64,000 nt of DNA from Escherichia coli (GCF_030013205.1 NZ_CP122648.1); one strand, 5' to 3'. Positions 1,832-63,311 are shown, counted from the first letter of the stretch. The notes: generated by a model from the letters alone, not told the origin. Made by a program: numbers and translations.

Positions 1832-3592
1832 TTGACCATTACGAAACTTGCATGGCGTGACCTGGTTCCTGATACCGATAGCTATCAGGAAATATTTGCT
1901 CAGCCACATTTGATTGACGAAAACGATCCTTTATTCAGTGATACTCAACCGCGACTGCAATTTGCGCTGGAGCAGTTGCTGCATACGCGAGCATCCTCCT
2001 CTTTTATGCTGGCGAAGGCCCCGGAAGAGTCTGAGTATCTGAATCTTATTGCCGATGCCGCGCGTGCGCTACAAAGCGATGCAGGCCAACTGGTGGGCGG
2101 TCACTATGAGGTTTCCGGGCACACCATCCGCTTACGTAACGCAGTGAGTGCAGATGATAATTTTGCGACTTTAACGCAAGTTGTCGCTGCCGACTGGGTA
2201 GAAGCGGAACAACTCTTTGGCTGCCTGCGCCAGTTTAATGGCGACATTACCCTGCAGCCAGGTCTGGTGCATCAGGCAAATGGCGGTATTCTCATCATCT
2301 CTTTGCGTACACTGCTGGCGCAACCTCTGCTGTGGATGCGGCTGAAAAATATCGTTAACCGCGAGCGTTTTGACTGGGTTGCGTTTGATGAGTCGCGCCC
2401 TCTCCCCGTCACTGTGCCTTCGATGCCATTGAAGCTGAAAGTCATTCTGGTAGGCGAACGCGAATCATTGGCTGATTTCCAGGAGATGGAACCAGAGCTT
2501 TCAGAGCAGGCTATTTATAGCGAATTTGAAGATACTCTGCAGATTGTCGATGCGGAGTCAGTAAGCCAGTGGTGTCGCTGGGTGACATTGACCGCCAGAC
2601 ATAATCACTTACCTGCACCAGGAGCGGATGCCTGGCCGGTACTTATCCGCGAAGCAGCCCGCTACACCGGTGAACAAGAAACACTTCCGCTTAGCCCGCA
2701 GTGGATCCTCCGCCAGTGTAAAGAGGTCGCCTCCCTGTGCGATGGCGACACCTTCTCCGGCGAGCAGCTAAACTTAATGCTGCAGCAGCGTGAATGGCGT
2801 GAAGGTTTCCTCGCTGAACGCATGCAGGATGAGATCCTTCAGGAGCAAATCCTGATTGAAACCGAAGGCGAATGCATCGGGCAAATTAACGCCCTTTCGG
2901 TCATTGAATTTCCGGGTCATCCACGCGCTTTTGGCGAACCTTCTCGCATTAGCTGCGTTGTGCATATTGGCGATGGTGAATTCACCGACATCGAACGCAA
3001 AGCGGAGCTTGGCGGCAATATCCATGCGAAAGGGATGATGATCATGCAGGCGTTCCTGATGTCGGAACTACAGCTTGAGCAACAGATCCCCTTCTCAGCA
3101 TCGCTGACATTTGAGCAGTCATACAGTGAAGTGGATGGCGATAGTGCCTCGATGGCTGAACTCTGCGCCCTGATAAGCGCCCTCGCCGATGTGCCGGTGA
3201 ATCAGAGTATCGCTATCACAGGTTCAGTCGATCAGTTCGGTCGTGCCCAGCCGGTCGGTGGTTTAAATGAGAAAATCGAAGGCTTCTTTGCTATTTGCCA
3301 GCAACGTGAGTTAACCGGGAAACAAGGTGTCATTATCCCCACTGCTAACATTCGCCATTTAAGTCTTCACAGTGAACTGGTGAAAGCGGTAGAAGAAGGC
3401 AAATTCACCATCTGGGCAGTAGACGATGTGACTGACGCACTGCCGTTATTATTAAATCTGGTGTGGGATGGCGAAGGCCAAACGACGCTGATGCAAACCA
3501 TCCAGGAACGTATCGCGCAAGCATCGCAACAGGAAGGACGTCACCGTTTTCCATGGCCATTACGTTGGCTGAACTGGTTTATTCCGAACTGA
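1832..3592 (+). CDS. ycbZ: Lon-like protease homolog YcbZ (LonH)
   Basis: 586-aa [25 protein letters not shown]...; matches E. coli YcbZ in length and sequence; synteny matP-ycbZ-fabA. Confidence 0.93.
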
Positions 3593-3622
3593 TCGGACTT
3601 GTTCAGCGTACACGTGTTAGCT
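3587..3622 (+). promoter_or_regulatory. fabA promoter operator region: FadR site (AACTGATCGGACTTGTTC) followed by FabR palindrome (AGCGTACACGTGTTAGCT)
   Basis: Sequence read directly about 40-75 bp upstream of fabA ATG; matches the recalled fabA FadR/FabR operator arrangement; overlaps the last codons of ycbZ. Confidence 0.5.
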
Positions 3623-3660
3623 ATCCTGCGTGCTTCAATAAAATAAGGCTTACAGAGAAC

Positions 3661-4179
3661 ATGGTAGATAAACGCGAATCCTATACAAAAGAAGACCTTC
3701 TTGCCTCTGGTCGCGGTGAACTGTTTGGCGCTAAAGGTCCGCAATTGCCAGCACCGAACATGCTGATGATGGACCGTGTGGTCAAAATGACCGAAACGGG
3801 TGGTAACTTCGACAAAGGGTATGTTGAAGCAGAACTGGATATCAATCCGGATCTGTGGTTCTTCGGATGCCACTTCATTGGCGATCCGGTTATGCCGGGA
3901 TGCCTGGGCCTGGACGCAATGTGGCAGCTGGTAGGGTTCTACCTCGGCTGGCTGGGCGGCGAAGGTAAAGGCCGCGCGCTGGGCGTTGGCGAAGTGAAAT
4001 TCACCGGTCAGGTACTGCCGACAGCGAAAAAAGTGACCTACCGTATTCACTTTAAACGCATTGTTAACCGTCGTCTGATTATGGGCCTGGCGGATGGCGA
4101 AGTGCTGGTTGATGGTCGTTTGATCTATACCGCCAGCGACCTGAAAGTCGGTCTGTTCCAGGATACGTCTGCCTTCTGA
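3661..4179 (+). CDS. fabA: 3-hydroxydecanoyl-ACP dehydratase/isomerase FabA
   Basis: ORF track 3463..4179 trimmed to ATG at 3661 ([23 protein letters not shown]...); 172 aa; matches E. coli FabA. Confidence 0.95.
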
Positions 4180-4204
4180 TTAGAATCAGACAGAGTATCA
4201 AAAG

Positions 4205-4236
4205 GCGAAACCTCCGCAATGCGGAGGTTTCTTTTT
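4205..4236 (+). terminator. Rho-independent terminator downstream of fabA
   Basis: Stem CCTCCGC / GCGGAGG with AAT loop followed by TTTCTTTTT; lies between convergent fabA and rmf. Confidence 0.65.
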
Positions 4237-4248
4237 AAAGAGACAGAA

Positions 4249-4416
4249 TCAGGCCATTACTACCCTGTCCGCCATGGCTTCTCGCCAGCCTCCCAGCCAT
4301 TGTGACCTTTGATTCAGCGTCTGATAGGGACACATTTCTTTTGAGCGTCCGGTGATGCCGGCCTGATAACCACGTTGATGTGCCCGTTCCAGGCGATCTC
4401 GTTTTTGTCTCTTCAT
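4249..4416 (-). CDS. rmf: Ribosome modulation factor Rmf
   Basis: Not in the ORF track (55 aa, below cutoff; track 65-aa ORF 4235..4432 is a different frame). Manual translation of reverse strand gives MKRQKRDRLERAHQRGYQAGITGRSKEMCPYQTLNQRSQWLGGWREAMADRVVMA*, matching E. coli Rmf; synteny fabA-rmf-pqiC. Confidence 0.9.
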   Translation of the reverse strand: MKRQKRDRLERAHQRGYQAGITGRSKEMCPYQTLNQRSQWLGGWREAMADRVVMA

Positions 4417-14352: not shown

Positions 14353-15363
14353 TTAGATATGGGTAACGATTTCTTTAATCAGCGGCGGACCTTTAAAAAT
14401 AAAACCAGAATAAATTTGCACCAGTGAGGCCCCCGCAGCAATCTTTTCACGCGCAGCGATAACCGAGTCGATGCCGCCAACACCGATGATCGGTAAGCGA
14501 CCATTTAATTCCTGTGATAAACGGCGAATAATTTCGGTGCTTTTTAACTGAAGCGGACGACCACTTAAGCCACCGGTTTGATCACAATTTTTCATTCCCT
14601 GAACCAGAGAACGATCGAGTGTGGTATTGGTTGCAATAACGCCATCAATATTATGGCGAACTAAACTATCGGCAACCTGGATCAATTCTTCTTCAGAAAG
14701 ATCCGGCGCGATCTTCACTGCGATCGGCACATATTTATGGTGCATCGCTTGCAAATCATTTTGCTTATTTTTAATCGCGGTTAAGAGATCATCCAGCGCT
14801 TCGCCATATTGCAGAGTACGTAATCCCGGTGTATTCGGCGATGAAATATTGATGGCGATATATCCCGCATAAGCATAGATTTTTTCCATACAAATCAGAT
14901 AGTCATCTTTACCCTGCTCCACCGGCGTATCTTTATTTTTGCCGATGTTAATACCCAGGACGCCATCATAATGGGCTTTTTTTACGTTCTCTACGAGGTT
15001 ATCAACGCCAAGATTATTAAAGCCCATACGGTTGATCAAACCTTCGGCATCTACCAGACGAAAGAGACGCGGCTTGTCATTACCTGGCTGTGGACGTGGC
15101 GTGACGGTACCGATCTCGATCGATCCAAATCCCATCGCGCCTAACGCGTCAATGCACTCCCCGTCTTTATCAAGACCGGCTGCCAGACCAAGCGGATTTT
15201 TAAACGTCAGGCCCATGCAGTTAACAGGTTTCGCAGGCACTTTCTGCCGCACCAGTGCTTCAAACGGCGTTCCTGTAATACGGCGTAATTGCTGAAAAGT
15301 AAACTCATGAGCGCGCTCTGGATCGAGCTGGAAAAGGGCTTTACGAACGAAGGGGTAGTACAT
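14353..15363 (-). CDS. pyrD: Dihydroorotate dehydrogenase (quinone) PyrD
   Basis: ORF track 14353..15390 trimmed to ATG at 15363 ([21 protein letters not shown]...); 336 aa; matches E. coli PyrD. Confidence 0.95.
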
Positions 15364-15448
15364 GAACTCTCCTGGATTCCCGGTGTGCAAACCGGGGGCG
15401 TATTATGTGCGAGTTCGGACCAAAAGGGAATTGACCTGTGGCAATAAA

Positions 15449-39539: not shown

Positions 39540-40319
39540 ATGCTTTTTACACTGAAAAAAGTGATTGGCAATATGTTGCTGCCACTTCCGCTAATGTTGT
39601 TGATTATTGGCGCTGGCCTGGCGCTGCTGTGGTTTAGCCGTTTTCAAAAAACCGGGAAGATTTTTATTAGCATTGGGTGGCTGGCGCTCTTGTTATTGAG
39701 TTTGCAACCGGTAGCCGACCGCCTGCTGCGTCCCATCGAAAGCACCTATCCGACATGGAATAATTCGCAAAAAGTGGACTATATCGTGGTGCTCGGAGGT
39801 GGTTATACCTGGAACCCGCAGTGGGCACCAAGCTCGAATTTAATCAATAACAGTCTGCCCCGCCTGAATGAAGGTATTCGCTTATGGCGCGAAAATCCGG
39901 GATCAAAACTGATCTTCACGGGAGGCGTAGCAAAAACCAATACGGTGAGTACAGCCGAAGTAGGTGCCCGAGTTGCGCAATCGCTGGGCGTGCCGCGCGA
40001 GCAAATTATCACTCTGGATTTGCCAAAAGATACCGAAGAAGAAGCTGCGGCAGTGAAACAGGCAATTGGTGACGCCCCTTTCCTGCTGGTGACATCCGCG
40101 TCTCATTTGCCGCGGGCGATGATCTTTTTTCAGCAGGAAGGGTTAAATCCGCTGCCAGCCCCGGCGAATCAGTTGGCCATCGACTCGCCGCTTAACCCGT
40201 GGGAACGGGCAATCCCTTCTCCAGTCTGGTTGATGCATAGCGATCGTGTTGGCTATGAAACGCTTGGCCGCATCTGGCAGTGGCTAAAAAGTTCGTCAGG
40301 CGAGCCACGGCAAGAGTGA
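39540..40319 (+). CDS. elyC: Envelope biogenesis factor ElyC (YcbC), DUF218 membrane protein
   Basis: 259-aa ORF MLFTLKKVIGNMLLPLPLMLLIIGAGLALLWFSRFQ...; matches E. coli ElyC. Confidence 0.92.
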   Translation: MLFTLKKVIGNMLLPLPLMLLIIGAGLALLWFSRFQKTGKIFISIGWLALLLLSLQPVADRLLRPIESTYPTWNNSQKVDYIVVLGGGYTWNPQWAPSSNLINNSLPRLNEGIRLWRENPGSKLIFTGGVAKTNTVSTAEVGARVAQSLGVPREQIITLDLPKDTEEEAAAVKQAIGDAPFLLVTSASHLPRAMIFFQQEGLNPLPAPANQLAIDSPLNPWERAIPSPVWLMHSDRVGYETLGRIWQWLKSSSGEPRQE

Positions 40320-41189
40320 TTTTGATGCCAGATCGAAGTTGCGCCGACTAAATCGTCCGGTATTAACCAGTTGCGCAACTTCATCCCATAACACATACAA
40401 CCAACGCCGCCAGATGAACGACTCCGCCACTGGCGCGCGTTGCAGGTAACTCCAGAGCAAATCTTCCGCCAGAGAATTATCCATTAGTCGGAACAGTTCG
40501 TATTCTCGCGGTGCCCAAAGCATTAGTCCCGGCCCGACCATCGCCAGTAACTGATCGCTGCGCGAATCTTTCAGCATGCTGCGTAAACAGAAGTTACCGT
40601 GAATCAGCACACAATTGTCGTTAAAGCCTTCAAATAATGCCGGGAGACATTCGCGAGTACGAAACAGGATCCGCTTATCCTGCATCGTTAGACCGGTGTT
40701 ATTGAACTGATTGAGCGTGGTCCATAGCACTTCAACATGTTGCCGGTACCATGAGGGCCAGAAATTTTCCTGAGTATTGTCGACCGCGCCGACGCAACCG
40801 CGACTGTCCTGACGGTGCCAGGCCAGTAAGGCTTCAACGATTTGGTCTTTGAGTTGTTCCCAGCGTTCTGGTGTTCGGGCTGGTGCCTCCACCGAAACAC
40901 CACGCATCCGCTCCAGTAGCAGGACATCGGGGCCGGGGTGTTCTTCATGCGTCATCACACCATAAATAGTCGGCATACGGACAGTTCCACTTCTTGCCAG
41001 CATGGTGGTTTTCCATGCCAGTTGTCGGGCTTTTCCGGGCGTACTAAAGCTTCTTGCCATTAACGGCATTGGGTTTCCCTGGCTGTCATACAAAGCCCAC
41101 AACGCCGTATCCGCTTTTTCATTGACGCACTCAATACGACTGAGTTTTTCGCCCAGTAAATGGCTTAATTCGGCACGCAGCTGTTCCAT
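40296..41189 (-). CDS. ycbJ: Protein kinase-like / phosphotransferase-fold protein YcbJ
   Basis: 297-aa ORF MEQLRAELSHLLGEKLSRIECVNEKADTALWALYDSQGNPMPLMARSF...; matches E. coli YcbJ; 3' end overlaps elyC 3' end (convergent). Confidence 0.9.
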   Translation of the reverse strand: MEQLRAELSHLLGEKLSRIECVNEKADTALWALYDSQGNPMPLMARSFSTPGKARQLAWKTTMLARSGTVRMPTIYGVMTHEEHPGPDVLLLERMRGVSVEAPARTPERWEQLKDQIVEALLAWHRQDSRGCVGAVDNTQENFWPSWYRQHVEVLWTTLNQFNNTGLTMQDKRILFRTRECLPALFEGFNDNCVLIHGNFCLRSMLKDSRSDQLLAMVGPGLMLWAPREYELFRLMDNSLAEDLLWSYLQRAPVAESFIWRRWLYVLWDEVAQLVNTGRFSRRNFDLASKSLLPWLA

Positions 41190-51911: not shown

Positions 51912-52676
51912 TTACTTACCAGAGGCGATACGATCACGGATGTGTTGCGCACGCTCTGTTGATGGTGGGTGAGAGTCAAACATGGACTGGGTACGACCGC
52001 CATCCAGGCTGGCCAATTTTTCAAAGCTGCCAACCAGCCCCTGGGTGCTGATGCCACGTTTCTTCAACAGTTCAAAGGAGAAATCATCTGCTTCGGACTC
52101 TTTATCGCGGGAGTATTTAGCATTGATCGCGCCTTCTGCGATATCACCTAATTGTGAGCGAGAAAGCTGGGAAGCCACACCGCTGGTAGCGGAAATCGCA
52201 TCACGTGCGGCAACGATCGCATAAGAAGCTTTCATTTCAGCCAGCGAGTGACCCAACGCGACGTGGCCCAGTTCATGACCCAGAACGCCTTCAATTTCGT
52301 TGTCGTTCATCATGTCCATCAGGCCACTGTAGACACGAACACAGCCGTTCGCCATCGCCCATGCGTTGACGTCGCTGGTCATATAAACCTTATAGTTGAC
52401 CGGCGTGCCATTAATATTGTTACCCAATGCTTTGGCGATTTTTGCCAGACGTTTACCGTACTTGCTGGATTTACTTGCGACTTGATTGCCGCTGTCCATT
52501 TCGGCACAGCCCTGATTGGCAATCGCTTTTGCATCAGCATCGCTTAACGTTGCTGCTTTATAGGCATTTAAACCTGAGCTGATAGCCATATTGGTATCAA
52601 TACCGTGGGTATTTTGACACCCTGTCAGTAATGCTGCAGAAGCCGCAATCGCCAGCAGTAATTTAGTATTCTTCAT
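51912..52676 (-). CDS. ycaL: M48-family zinc metalloprotease lipoprotein YcaL
   Basis: ORF track 51912..52700 trimmed to ATG at 52676 (MKNTKLLLAIAASAALLTGC lipobox); 254 aa; HELGH zinc motif (HELGHVALGH); matches E. coli YcaL. Confidence 0.92.
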   Translation of the reverse strand: MKNTKLLLAIAASAALLTGCQNTHGIDTNMAISSGLNAYKAATLSDADAKAIANQGCAEMDSGNQVASKSSKYGKRLAKIAKALGNNINGTPVNYKVYMTSDVNAWAMANGCVRVYSGLMDMMNDNEIEGVLGHELGHVALGHSLAEMKASYAIVAARDAISATSGVASQLSRSQLGDIAEGAINAKYSRDKESEADDFSFELLKKRGISTQGLVGSFEKLASLDGGRTQSMFDSHPPSTERAQHIRDRIASGK

Positions 52677-52774
52677 GTGAATCATCCGTTGATTAATCAT
52701 ATATAAATATTATGTATCAACAACTTACATTGACAAGCGACGCTACCATTAATCAAAATGACTCACAAGGTCCG

Positions 52775-53485
52775 AATAAATATCCTCCGGCATAGCCGGA
52801 GGTTTTTCAAATGCGCCTATAAGGCTCTCTTACCAGCCGCGCCCTAACAGGCGCACACGATCTGACATTTGCATCCAACTTCGTTACTTACGGCCCGTAA
52901 ACGGGCTGCCCGGATAGGGAATCGATAACTGCTCTCCCATTTTATCCTCTTCAAGCTGGTGCTTTATGTAATCCTGTATCTTCGCCGTGTTCTTACCCAC
53001 CGTATCGACGTAGTACCCTCTGCACCAGAACTCTCTGTTCCTGTATTTGAATTTCAAATCACCAAACTGCTCGTAAAGCATCAGACTGCTTTTCCCTTTC
53101 AGATATCCCATAAAGCCGGATACGCTCATTTTGGGCGGGATCTCCACAAGCATATGGATATGATCTGCACAGCATTCAGCTTCAAGAATCCGTACGCTTT
53201 TCCACTCACACAGCTTTCTCAAAATACTGCCTATTGCTCTACGCTTCTCTCTGTAGAACACTTGTCTTCGGTATTTTGGCGCAAAAACTATGTGATATTT
53301 ACAGTTCCATCGGGTGTGCGCTAAGCTCTTTTCGTTCCCCATTGGGACCCCCTTTTGATTTCTTGTTTGACACTTGCAGTTGCCAGACCGCAAGGTGTTT
53401 TAACAAATCAAAAGGGGTTTTAATAACTGGCTCAAAGCTGAAAGCTTTCCGGAACCCCCAGCCTAGCTGGGGGTTTTCTGTGCAC
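52775..53485 (-). mobile_element. IS200 insertion sequence (IS200/IS605 family), about 0.71 kb, tnpA only
   Basis: Contains a 152-aa Y1/HuH transposase ORF with the recalled hallmark features of IS200 (twin subterminal GC hairpins at 52784..52802 and 53455..53473, and an RBS-occluding inverted repeat in the tnpA leader). Boundaries estimated (+/- about 20 bp) from hairpin positions and the canonical ~707-bp length; not confirmed by alignment. Confidence 0.7.
52884..53342 (-). CDS. tnpA: IS200 transposase TnpA (Y1 HuH single-strand transposase)
   Basis: ORF track 52884..53393 trimmed to ATG at 53342 preceded by AAGGGGG RBS; protein MGNEKSLAHTRWNCKYHIVFAPKYRRQVFY...ADHIHMLVEIPP...YPGSPFTGRK matches the recalled IS200 TnpA (HuH motif HIH, catalytic Tyr region); 152 aa. 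Confidence 0.9.
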   Translation of the reverse strand: MGNEKSLAHTRWNCKYHIVFAPKYRRQVFYREKRRAIGSILRKLCEWKSVRILEAECCADHIHMLVEIPPKMSVSGFMGYLKGKSSLMLYEQFGDLKFKYRNREFWCRGYYVDTVGKNTAKIQDYIKHQLEEDKMGEQLSIPYPGSPFTGRK

Positions 53486-62570: not shown

Positions 62571-63311
62571 ATGTCAGTTATTGGTCGCATTCACTCCTTT
62601 GAATCCTGTGGAACCGTAGACGGCCCGGGTATTCGCTTTATCACCTTTTTCCAGGGCTGCCTGATGCGCTGCCTGTATTGTCATAACCGCGACACCTGGG
62701 ACACGCATGGCGGTAAAGAAGTTACCGTTGAAGATTTGATGAAGGAAGTGGTGACCTATCGCCACTTTATGAACGCTTCCGGCGGCGGCGTTACCGCATC
62801 CGGCGGTGAAGCAATCCTGCAAGCTGAGTTTGTTCGTGACTGGTTCCGCGCCTGCAAAAAAGAAGGCATTCATACCTGTCTGGATACCAACGGTTTTGTT
62901 CGTCGTTACGATCCGGTGATTGATGAACTGCTGGAAGTAACCGACCTGGTAATGCTCGATCTCAAACAGATGAACGACGAGATCCACCAAAATCTGGTTG
63001 GAGTTTCCAACCACCGCACGCTGGAGTTCGCCAAATATCTGGCGAACAAAAATGTGAAGGTGTGGATCCGCTACGTTGTTGTCCCAGGCTGGTCTGACGA
63101 TGACGATTCAGCGCATCGCCTCGGTGAATTTACCCGTGATATGGGCAACGTTGAGAAAATCGAGCTTCTCCCCTACCACGAACTGGGCAAACACAAATGG
63201 GTGGCGATGGGTGAAGAATACAAACTTGATGGTGTTAAACCACCGAAGAAAGAGACCATGGAACGCGTGAAAGGCATTCTTGAGCAGTACGGTCATAAGG
63301 TAATGTTCTAA
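62571..63311 (+). CDS. pflA: Pyruvate formate-lyase activating enzyme (radical SAM)
   Basis: ORF track 62544..63311 trimmed to ATG at 62571 ([43 protein letters not shown], CxxxCxxC radical-SAM cluster motif); 246 aa; matches E. coli PflA. Confidence 0.96.

Follow-up and report, generated by a model that had tools for sequence, protein, structure and literature searches.

The junction between ycbZ and fabA in Escherichia coli raises the question of how far the DNA that controls transcription of fabA is at the same time coding sequence of its upstream neighbor. The DNA analyzed here, a 64 kb stretch of E. coli chromosome referred to below as the window, carries the gene order ompA, matP, ycbZ, fabA, rmf, pqiCBA according to the RefSeq annotation. 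The ycbZ reading frame (1832..3592, + strand; ORF and RefSeq annotation) encodes a LonC-like putative protease of 586 residues with the Pfam domains AAA_32 and Lon_C. Its top PDB match is LonC (4fwd, E = 1e-57), and this alignment ends at residue 547, such that a tail comprising residues 548-586 extends beyond the aligned Lon-like domain. The ycbZ stop codon, a TGA, occupies positions 3590-3592 (+ strand), which map to 1,016,539-1,016,541 on the complement strand of K-12. A spacer of 68 nt separates it from fabA (3661..4179, + strand, annotated; 172 residues; Pfam FabA domain, E = 4.8e-53), which begins with an ATG at 3661. We found no terminator-like site on the + strand between the two genes. 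A bidirectional intrinsic terminator with an 11-bp stem including seven GC pairs, flanked by T-runs on both strands, is present at 4207..4231 and is common to fabA (+ strand) and rmf (− strand). It has been reported that ycbZ and fabA are co-transcribed as one transcription unit from a promoter that precedes ycbZ (Conway et al.), and an internal promoter within ycbZ, upstream of fabA, has already been published as well. Positions 3300-4300 were matched in 5,425 of 5,426 complete E. coli genomes, several of them at 100% identity.

An earlier note on this DNA placed the fabA promoter together with its FadR and FabR operators inside the 3′ end of ycbZ, and from this arrangement it concluded that the regulation of fabA is physically coupled to the ycbZ coding sequence. 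The junction reads ...TTT ATT CCG AAC TGA TCGGACTTGTTC AGCGTACACGTGTTAGCT ATCCTG..., and direct reading combined with a pattern search puts the two 18-mers exactly where the note had them, at 3587-3604 and 3605-3622. On the + strand, AACTGATCGGACTTGTTC at 3587-3604 is the sole match in the 64 kb when up to three mismatches are allowed, with 0.06 matches expected by chance. It contains the FadR operator AACTGATCGGACTTGTT (3587..3603, + strand; 1,016,528-1,016,544 on the complement strand when mapped to K-12), which is a 17-bp imperfect palindrome for a regulator of the GntR family and agrees at 15 of 17 positions with aaCTGGTCnGACCwGtt, the consensus given in a review. As a further check, a position weight matrix (PWM) for FadR was derived from five independent sites among the published EMSA probes (two from fadL, two from fadD and one from fadBA), with fabA and fabB excluded. 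With this matrix the fabA box ranked 7th-8th among 127,968 window positions (z = 4.2), and it ranked 1st when fabB was added, which bears out the match that the note had anticipated from a motif scan. Other high PWM matches (at 63087, 62154, 55239, 45555 and 44547) all lie within coding sequences (pflA, pflB, serC, msbA and lpxK) and are regarded as noise of a five-site matrix. The identity of the two motifs as the fabA operators does not have to be argued from matrices: positions 3577-3632 correspond letter for letter to the published fabA EMSA probe, on which both are marked, as FadR box and FabR palindrome (PMC4259882, PMC4537474). This probe is shifted by wild-type FadR and not by the W60G mutant. 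Binding of FadR to the 3577-3632 sequence, activation by FadR and repression by FabR have all been published on the basis of experiments.

The FabR operator AGCGTACACGTGTTAGCT (3605..3622, + strand; K-12 positions 1,016,509-1,016,526, complement strand) is an 18-bp palindrome for a TetR-family regulator, self-complementary at 14 of its 18 positions, that fills the promoter spacer. It is the only match in the 64 kb at up to three mismatches, and 0.04 matches are expected by chance. The FabR box starts 13 nt beyond the ycbZ stop codon, and a single base lies between it and the FadR box. A generic sigma-70 scan of 3200-4400 returned no promoter having at least nine of 12 consensus matches at 16-18 nt spacing, and the hexamers were therefore assigned from geometry only. 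Promoters that depend on an activator can be expected to be weak, and the scan result is understandable in this light. The −35-like element would be TTGTTC (3599..3604, + strand), which overlaps the 3′ end of the FadR box and agrees with TTGACA at three of six positions. The −10-like element would be TATCCT (3622..3627, + strand), the first T of which doubles as the final base of the FabR box. Together the two hexamers show seven of 12 consensus matches with a 17-nt spacer. The main fabA start probably lies near 3633-3635, and the second would be expected a few bases 5′ of it, in or beside the FabR box. A published fabA promoter mutation, −19G>A, falls inside the FabR box, and a G at −19 in that box is consistent with a start in this position. 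The center of the FadR box (3595) is ~27-32 nt 5′ of TATCCT and would correspond to about −40 relative to this start.

If both motifs were chance resemblances without a regulatory role, the negative outcome of the generic promoter scan would fit, and we see nothing else in favor of such an explanation. It is already refuted by the identity of the DNA to published FadR-bound probes, by the rarity of the motifs (0.04-0.06 matches expected by chance) and by their conservation, as they do not vary among 5,425 E. coli genomes and are conserved across dozens of genera; what probability it retains is negligible. We conclude, with a probability of about 95%, that 3587-3660 constitutes the canonical sigma-70 promoter region of E. 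coli fabA with its FadR and FabR operators. The literature describes fabA as activated by FadR and repressed by FabR, and as having two overlapping promoters, one 3′ of the FabR site and one within it. The normal start is 3′ of the FabR site, while deletion of fadR leads to use of the FabR-controlled promoter inside the site (literature including PMC7083825). In terms of the sequence elements in the window, a FadR dimer on the box at 3587-3603, overlapping the putative weak −35 element TTGTTC, activates fabA transcription. Long-chain acyl-CoA would release FadR, and fabA expression would fall. FabR on the palindrome at 3605-3622, which would fill the spacer and touch the −10 element TATCCT, represses fabA.

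Having identified the promoter, we can ask how much of it belongs to ycbZ. The DNA shared between ycbZ and the operators is AAC TGA (3587-3592), that is, six of the ~36 operator bases, corresponding to positions 1-6 of the FadR box. The TGA, which indeed ends at 3592 as had been read before, represents box positions 4-6, so six bases are common to coding and operator DNA. The remainder of the FadR box lies in the intergenic spacer, as do the complete FabR palindrome, TTGTTC and TATCCT and, presumably, the main starts. Since only AAC TGA is shared, the description of the operators as lying inside the 3′ end of ycbZ goes too far; it is accurate for 6 nt of the FadR box and inaccurate for the remaining ~30 bases, which include the FabR box, and for the hexamers. 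The 6-nt overlap with the ycbZ stop is implicit in the public annotation, and in the ycbZ and fabA literature searched we found no discussion of the FadR box overlapping the ycbZ stop.

To place the arrangement in an evolutionary context, a FabA-based scan using one genome per species was carried out, which yielded 80 loci from Enterobacterales, Pasteurellaceae and Vibrio. A ycbZ homologue (36-95% protein identity) is positioned directly 5′ of fabA on the same strand in 78 of the 80; one of the two loci not counted has too little upstream sequence to tell. The FadR box is intact, defined as at most one mismatch to NNCTGRTCNGAYNTGTT at the fixed position, in 51 of the 78 loci, and the ycbZ TGA occupies box positions 4-6 in 45 of these 51, one Vibrio included. 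A FabR box (at most two mismatches to AGCKTACANNTGTWMGCT, 52-60 nt from the ATG) is present in 65 loci, and in most species the spacing from the start of the FadR box to the start of the FabR box is 18 nt. Conservation, calculated as the majority-base fraction per column and averaged over 65 anchored species loci, is 0.86 for the FadR box and 0.90 for the FabR box, compared with 0.61 over the final 60 nt of ycbZ. Moreover, T3622, A3623 and T3627, the TAnnnT of the −10 element, are 100% conserved in the 65 species. In E. coli, 5,425 of 5,426 genomes have an identity of 99% or more across the 106-nt junction, and 1,389 genomes drop to 95-99% across the surrounding 1 kb.

The position of the ycbZ stop relative to the box differs among lineages. 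Two Haemophilus loci carry an in-frame TGA within a shifted, more degenerate box, and in two Vibrio species a TAG stop abuts the FadR box. In Photorhabdus, Proteus and one Pectobacterium locus, ycbZ stops 11-20 nt upstream of the box. The range for Morganellaceae is 11-23 nt, and there the box is kept or nearly kept (some have CAGATC). Pectobacteriaceae have the stop 20 nt upstream together with a degenerate FadR box. In Erwiniaceae a TAA is found at the fixed stop position and the left half-site is destroyed. The FabR box is kept in nearly all loci, even in those Erwiniaceae and Pectobacteriaceae in which the FadR box has decayed. These two families have lost the canonical FadR box and retained the FabR box. 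The location of the ycbZ stop within the FadR box may date from before the split of Enterobacterales, Vibrio and Pasteurellaceae, or it may have been acquired repeatedly.

These comparisons bear on the strong form of the embedding claim, in which the fabA operators would be embedded in ycbZ codons, the two would constrain each other and regulation would depend on the ycbZ frame. The six shared bases speak for it, as do the recurrence of the stop at box positions 4-6 in 45 of the 51 loci with an intact box and the situation in Erwiniaceae, in which TAA as the stop goes together with a change of the left half-site from CTGATC to TTAATC. However, 30 of the ~36 operator bases and both hexamers are intergenic, and the one shared sense codon covers box positions 1-3, of which positions 1-2 have lower-case letters in the consensus, denoting weak specification. 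In addition, the last YcbZ residue varies among species, being N, G, S, R or D. The sequence CTGATC is also present at fabB, which has no ycbZ upstream, and in Morganellaceae, where ycbZ ends before the box, the corresponding bases are CTGATC, GTGATC or CAGATC. The presence of CTGATC at fabB and of CTGATC or near variants in Morganellaceae therefore indicates that the A of TGA is not maintained by its role in a stop codon. Given that the last residue and box positions 1-2 vary, and that the box is kept without the stop, the stop exploits the operator rather than constraining it. We consider mutual embedding unlikely. A related possibility concerns the DNA just upstream, where a vestigial FadR-like box AACTGGTTTATTCCGAA (3572..3588, + strand) spans codons N581-N586; in E. 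coli its left half alone is intact and its PWM score is 4.8. The tail codons for N-W-F-N-(H/Q) read AACTGGTTYAACCAS in many genera, starting 15 bp 5′ of the canonical box. One could imagine a putative second FadR-type operator, AACTGGTTnAACCAG, in the last ycbZ codons that is real somewhere in the clade, being ancestral or alternative in other Enterobacterales, used where the canonical box was lost, and vestigial in E. coli. In other genera, PWM scores for the homologous AACTGGTTYAACCAG are 8-10.3 (the 99.9th percentile of the window is 8.0), mostly in Erwiniaceae and Pectobacteriaceae with a degenerate canonical box, and Asn at palindrome positions 3 and 12 is encoded by AAC in 48 of 52 cases as compared with 46% AAC elsewhere in the same genes, but for scores and codon counts alike the species are non-independent samples. 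The Phe codon at the central "n" is free (14 TTC and 12 TTT). Furthermore, the motif survives in five Pectobacteriaceae loci in which, owing to an earlier ycbZ stop, this DNA is non-coding, and Pasteurella bettyae has it immediately upstream of its FabR box. On the other hand, CTGGTT follows automatically from the conserved Trp-Phe/Leu peptide, and a five-site PWM is permissive. The 15-bp shift would also bring FadR to another face of the helix, near −55, and the CTGGTTnAACCAG variant is a candidate site by sequence alone. The right half is absent in the window, in keeping with the low score, and this second palindrome does not belong to the E. coli promoter; that it acts as an operator elsewhere in the clade appears doubtful.

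The preferred reading, an intergenic fabA promoter whose FadR box begins in the last codons of ycbZ, leaves the idea of physical coupling weak as far as a sequence constraint is concerned. Coupling does exist in other forms, namely through the published co-transcription, the internal promoter, a CpxR box and an acid-induced start. A CpxR DNase I footprint covers 3374..3406 (+ strand), corresponding to −287 to −255 from the fabA ATG and within ycbZ codons (Xu et al. 2020, PMC7083825). The CpxR box GTAGAAGAAGGCAAA inside this footprint was located at 3389-3403 (+ strand) and its position was confirmed by sequence search; it was published as GTAGAagaagGCAAA at −272 to −258 from the fabA ATG (Xu et al. 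2020, PMC7083825). The acid-induced third fabA start, S3, maps to 3458 (+ strand), 203 bp upstream of the ATG and likewise within ycbZ codons (PMC7083825). A −10-like TATTAT at 3447-3452 may serve this start. Counted from the ycbZ stop codon, the CpxR box is 189-203 nt and the acid-induced start 132-134 nt upstream. The CpxR box and TATTAT are conserved in Escherichia only (E. coli and E. albertii), so that, in contrast to the FadR/FabR module, the one within ycbZ is restricted to a single lineage.

The last codons of ycbZ also have a role in translation. Pro585 (CCG) in the P site and Asn586 (AAC) in the A site, at 3584..3589 (+ strand), are published ribosome stall codons of K-12 ycbZ (PMC8848927). 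The pause is among the strongest in E. coli and exceeds that at SecM Pro166 (Fujita et al. 2022, PMC8848927). It has been validated by ribosome profiling, a reporter assay, cryo-EM (PDB 7CPJ) and tRNA-seq, and it depends on P585, N586 and W579/L580 (PMC8848927). The window encodes the identical 30-residue tail motif with every residue named in that study. The A-site codon AAC represents positions 1-3 of the FadR box and is directly followed by the stop. Consequently, arrest codons (CCG AAC), the ycbZ stop and the FadR operator with the fabA −35 element all fall within ~20 bp (3584-3604), and a published arrest that is functionally unexplained sits at the very start of the fabA FadR operator. 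Fujita et al. 2022 (PMC8848927) make no mention of fabA, FadR or the operon context. YcbZ protein is ~2-fold higher in a queuosine-deficient tgt mutant; it is a matter of speculation that this effect may relate to decoding of the Asn586 codon.

It is conceivable that the C-terminus of YcbZ is a cis-acting arrest element that modulates fabA on the read-through ycbZ-fabA mRNA, in the manner of SecM-secA or TnaC-tnaA. A validated stall stronger than SecM Pro166, a single ycbZ-fabA transcription unit with no terminator-like site between the genes, and the synteny of the two genes in 78 of 80 species speak in favor of such an element. Moreover, the tail motif WPLRWLNWF, which includes the stall-relevant W579 and L580, is kept even where overall identity is ~50%, and tail residues 548-586 are outside the aligned Lon-like domain. 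Against this, transcription of fabA starts mainly 3′ of the stall, so that the stall site is missing from most fabA mRNA, and P585 and N586 are themselves poorly conserved, with just 13 of 78 tails ending in PN. There is also no significant or conserved mRNA structure between the stall site and the ribosome-binding site of fabA. For 3560-3690 and 3590-3680, the folds were no better than those of shuffled sequences (z = −1.0 and +1.2), and a 25-species consensus fold of −4.3 kcal/mol contained 0 compensatory pairs. An mRNA hairpin connecting the stall/stop region with the fabA leader was rejected, as it showed neither excess stability nor covariation. In addition, ycbZ is a gene for a full-length enzyme and not a short leader ORF, and the promoter itself accounts for the spacing being conserved. 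Taken as a whole, a SecM- or TnaC-like element is very unlikely. That the meeting of arrest codons, stop and operator is functional, with the YcbZ arrest acting in cis on read-through ycbZ-fabA mRNA, also seems quite improbable. In such a case, a ribosome stalled over the start of the spacer might alter Rho access, mRNA decay or re-initiation on the ycbZ-fabA mRNA. The output of fabA would then be tied to translation status besides FadR, FabR and CpxR, a translational input would be added to the control of unsaturated fatty acids, and one of the strongest E. coli stalls would have a function.

The reading of this junction as the fabA promoter with its two operators re-identifies a textbook promoter and contributes nothing new in this respect. 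The proposal was correct in substance and ordinary, given that the fabA operators were already known. Its worth is that of a positive control, in which the operators were recognized from raw sequence at exact coordinates.

Comparison with known systems places the junction as follows. With SecM-secA and TnaC-tnaA, ycbZ has in common a strong stall that depends on the nascent chain and is located at the 3′ end of a co-transcribed upstream ORF. Unlike SecM and TnaC, the ORF bearing the arrest encodes a 586-residue protease homologue, no stall-sensitive RNA structure was found, and the main promoters of the downstream gene, fabA, lie 3′ of the stall. The fabA promoters of Vibrio and Shewanella have the FadR/FabR tandem as in E. 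coli, and FadR binding and activation have been shown experimentally for both. Also as in E. coli, a ycbZ homologue is upstream of fabA in the three Vibrio loci examined; unlike in E. coli, the ycbZ TAG abuts the box without overlapping it in two of the three. The closest relative within E. coli is the fabB promoter, which has the same architecture, a FadR box (GGCTGATCGGACTTGTT), one base and a FabR box (GGCGTACAAGTGTACGCT), with a −10 element that begins with the last T of the FabR box. The fabA and fabB tandems are identical at 37 of 47 bases, including CTGATC instead of the consensus CTGGTC, and their FabR boxes at 14 of 18. In contrast to fabA, fabB is not preceded by ycbZ and its TGA has no coding role, and the use of these bases as a stop codon at fabA is therefore opportunistic. 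The fabA promoter itself was reportedly described by Henry and Cronan (1991/1992) and by Feng and Cronan (2009/2011); the locus studied here is the same locus with the same sequence, and no difference separates the two.

The ycbZ-fabA synteny is kept in 78 of 80 species of Enterobacterales, Pasteurellaceae and Vibrio (loci L003-L082, one fabA locus per species). In the Pectobacteriaceae (L030, L032, L033, L035, and L049) and the Erwiniaceae (L034, L040, L042, L052, L055, L057, L059, and L067), the FabR palindrome has been retained, but the canonical FadR box ahead of fabA is either degenerate or destroyed. Decay of one operator with retention of the other suggests that FadR activation of fabA has been lost or relocated in these two families.

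A second FadR-like palindrome, AACTGGTTnAACCAG, is present in the final ycbZ codons, its first base lying 15 bp before that of the canonical box. It was assigned to loci L016, L019, L022, L023, L030, L032-L035, L049, L052, L055, L057, L060, and L063, and it is strongest in loci where the canonical FadR box has decayed. The E. coli copy (3572-3588) is vestigial. The Asn codons of the palindrome are skewed to AAC (48/52), and in Pectobacteriaceae the palindrome is still present in non-coding DNA. The same end of ycbZ encodes a basic, W/F-rich C-terminal tail (WPLRWLNWF and variants) beyond the Lon-like domain, and this tail is better conserved than YcbZ overall.

The end of ycbZ is also the location of a very strong ribosome stall site, Pro585-Asn586, reported in a study that mentions neither fabA nor FadR (Fujita 2022, PMC8848927). 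The stall codons (3584-3589) are positioned one codon ahead of the ycbZ stop. They comprise the codon preceding the FadR box and box positions 1-3. The A-site codon of the stall is AAC, an Asn codon decoded by queuosine-modified tRNA. In a queuosine-deficient tgt mutant, the YcbZ protein is approximately 2-fold up (PMC9508795). Any tie between this rise and the AAC codon at the stall is speculative.

Further upstream, two published features are located wholly within ycbZ codons: the CpxR footprint (3374-3406), which contains the CpxR box GTAGAAGAAGGCAAA at 3389-3403, and S3 (3458), a fabA start site induced by acid. A -10-like TATTAT is found at 3447-3452. Among the 27 Enterobacteriaceae loci compared, the CpxR box and TATTAT are kept in E. 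coli and E. albertii only. Downstream, a bidirectional intrinsic terminator with an 11-bp stem (4207-4231) lies between the convergent fabA and rmf genes.

Strain CFSAN018748 is one of several that are 100% identical to the window over 3300-4300, with 63 differing positions in the first 50 kb. Its ycbJ and ycaL are annotated as pseudogenes (internal stop and frameshift); in the window both are intact ORFs on the minus strand (40296-41189 and 51912-52700, respectively). Between ycaL and aroA lie an IS200-type transposase ORF (52884-53393) and the adjoining Rfam match STnc490 (53352-53475, minus strand). The second of the two Rfam matches, the PyrD leader (15358-15431, minus strand), is situated upstream of pyrD.

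In Haemophilus haemolyticus (L075) and H. seminalis (L081), the ycbZ-fabA spacer is longer (about 180 nt) and two FabR-like palindromes are present upstream of fabA. The distal one is near the ycbZ stop, and a FadR-like box precedes the proximal one.
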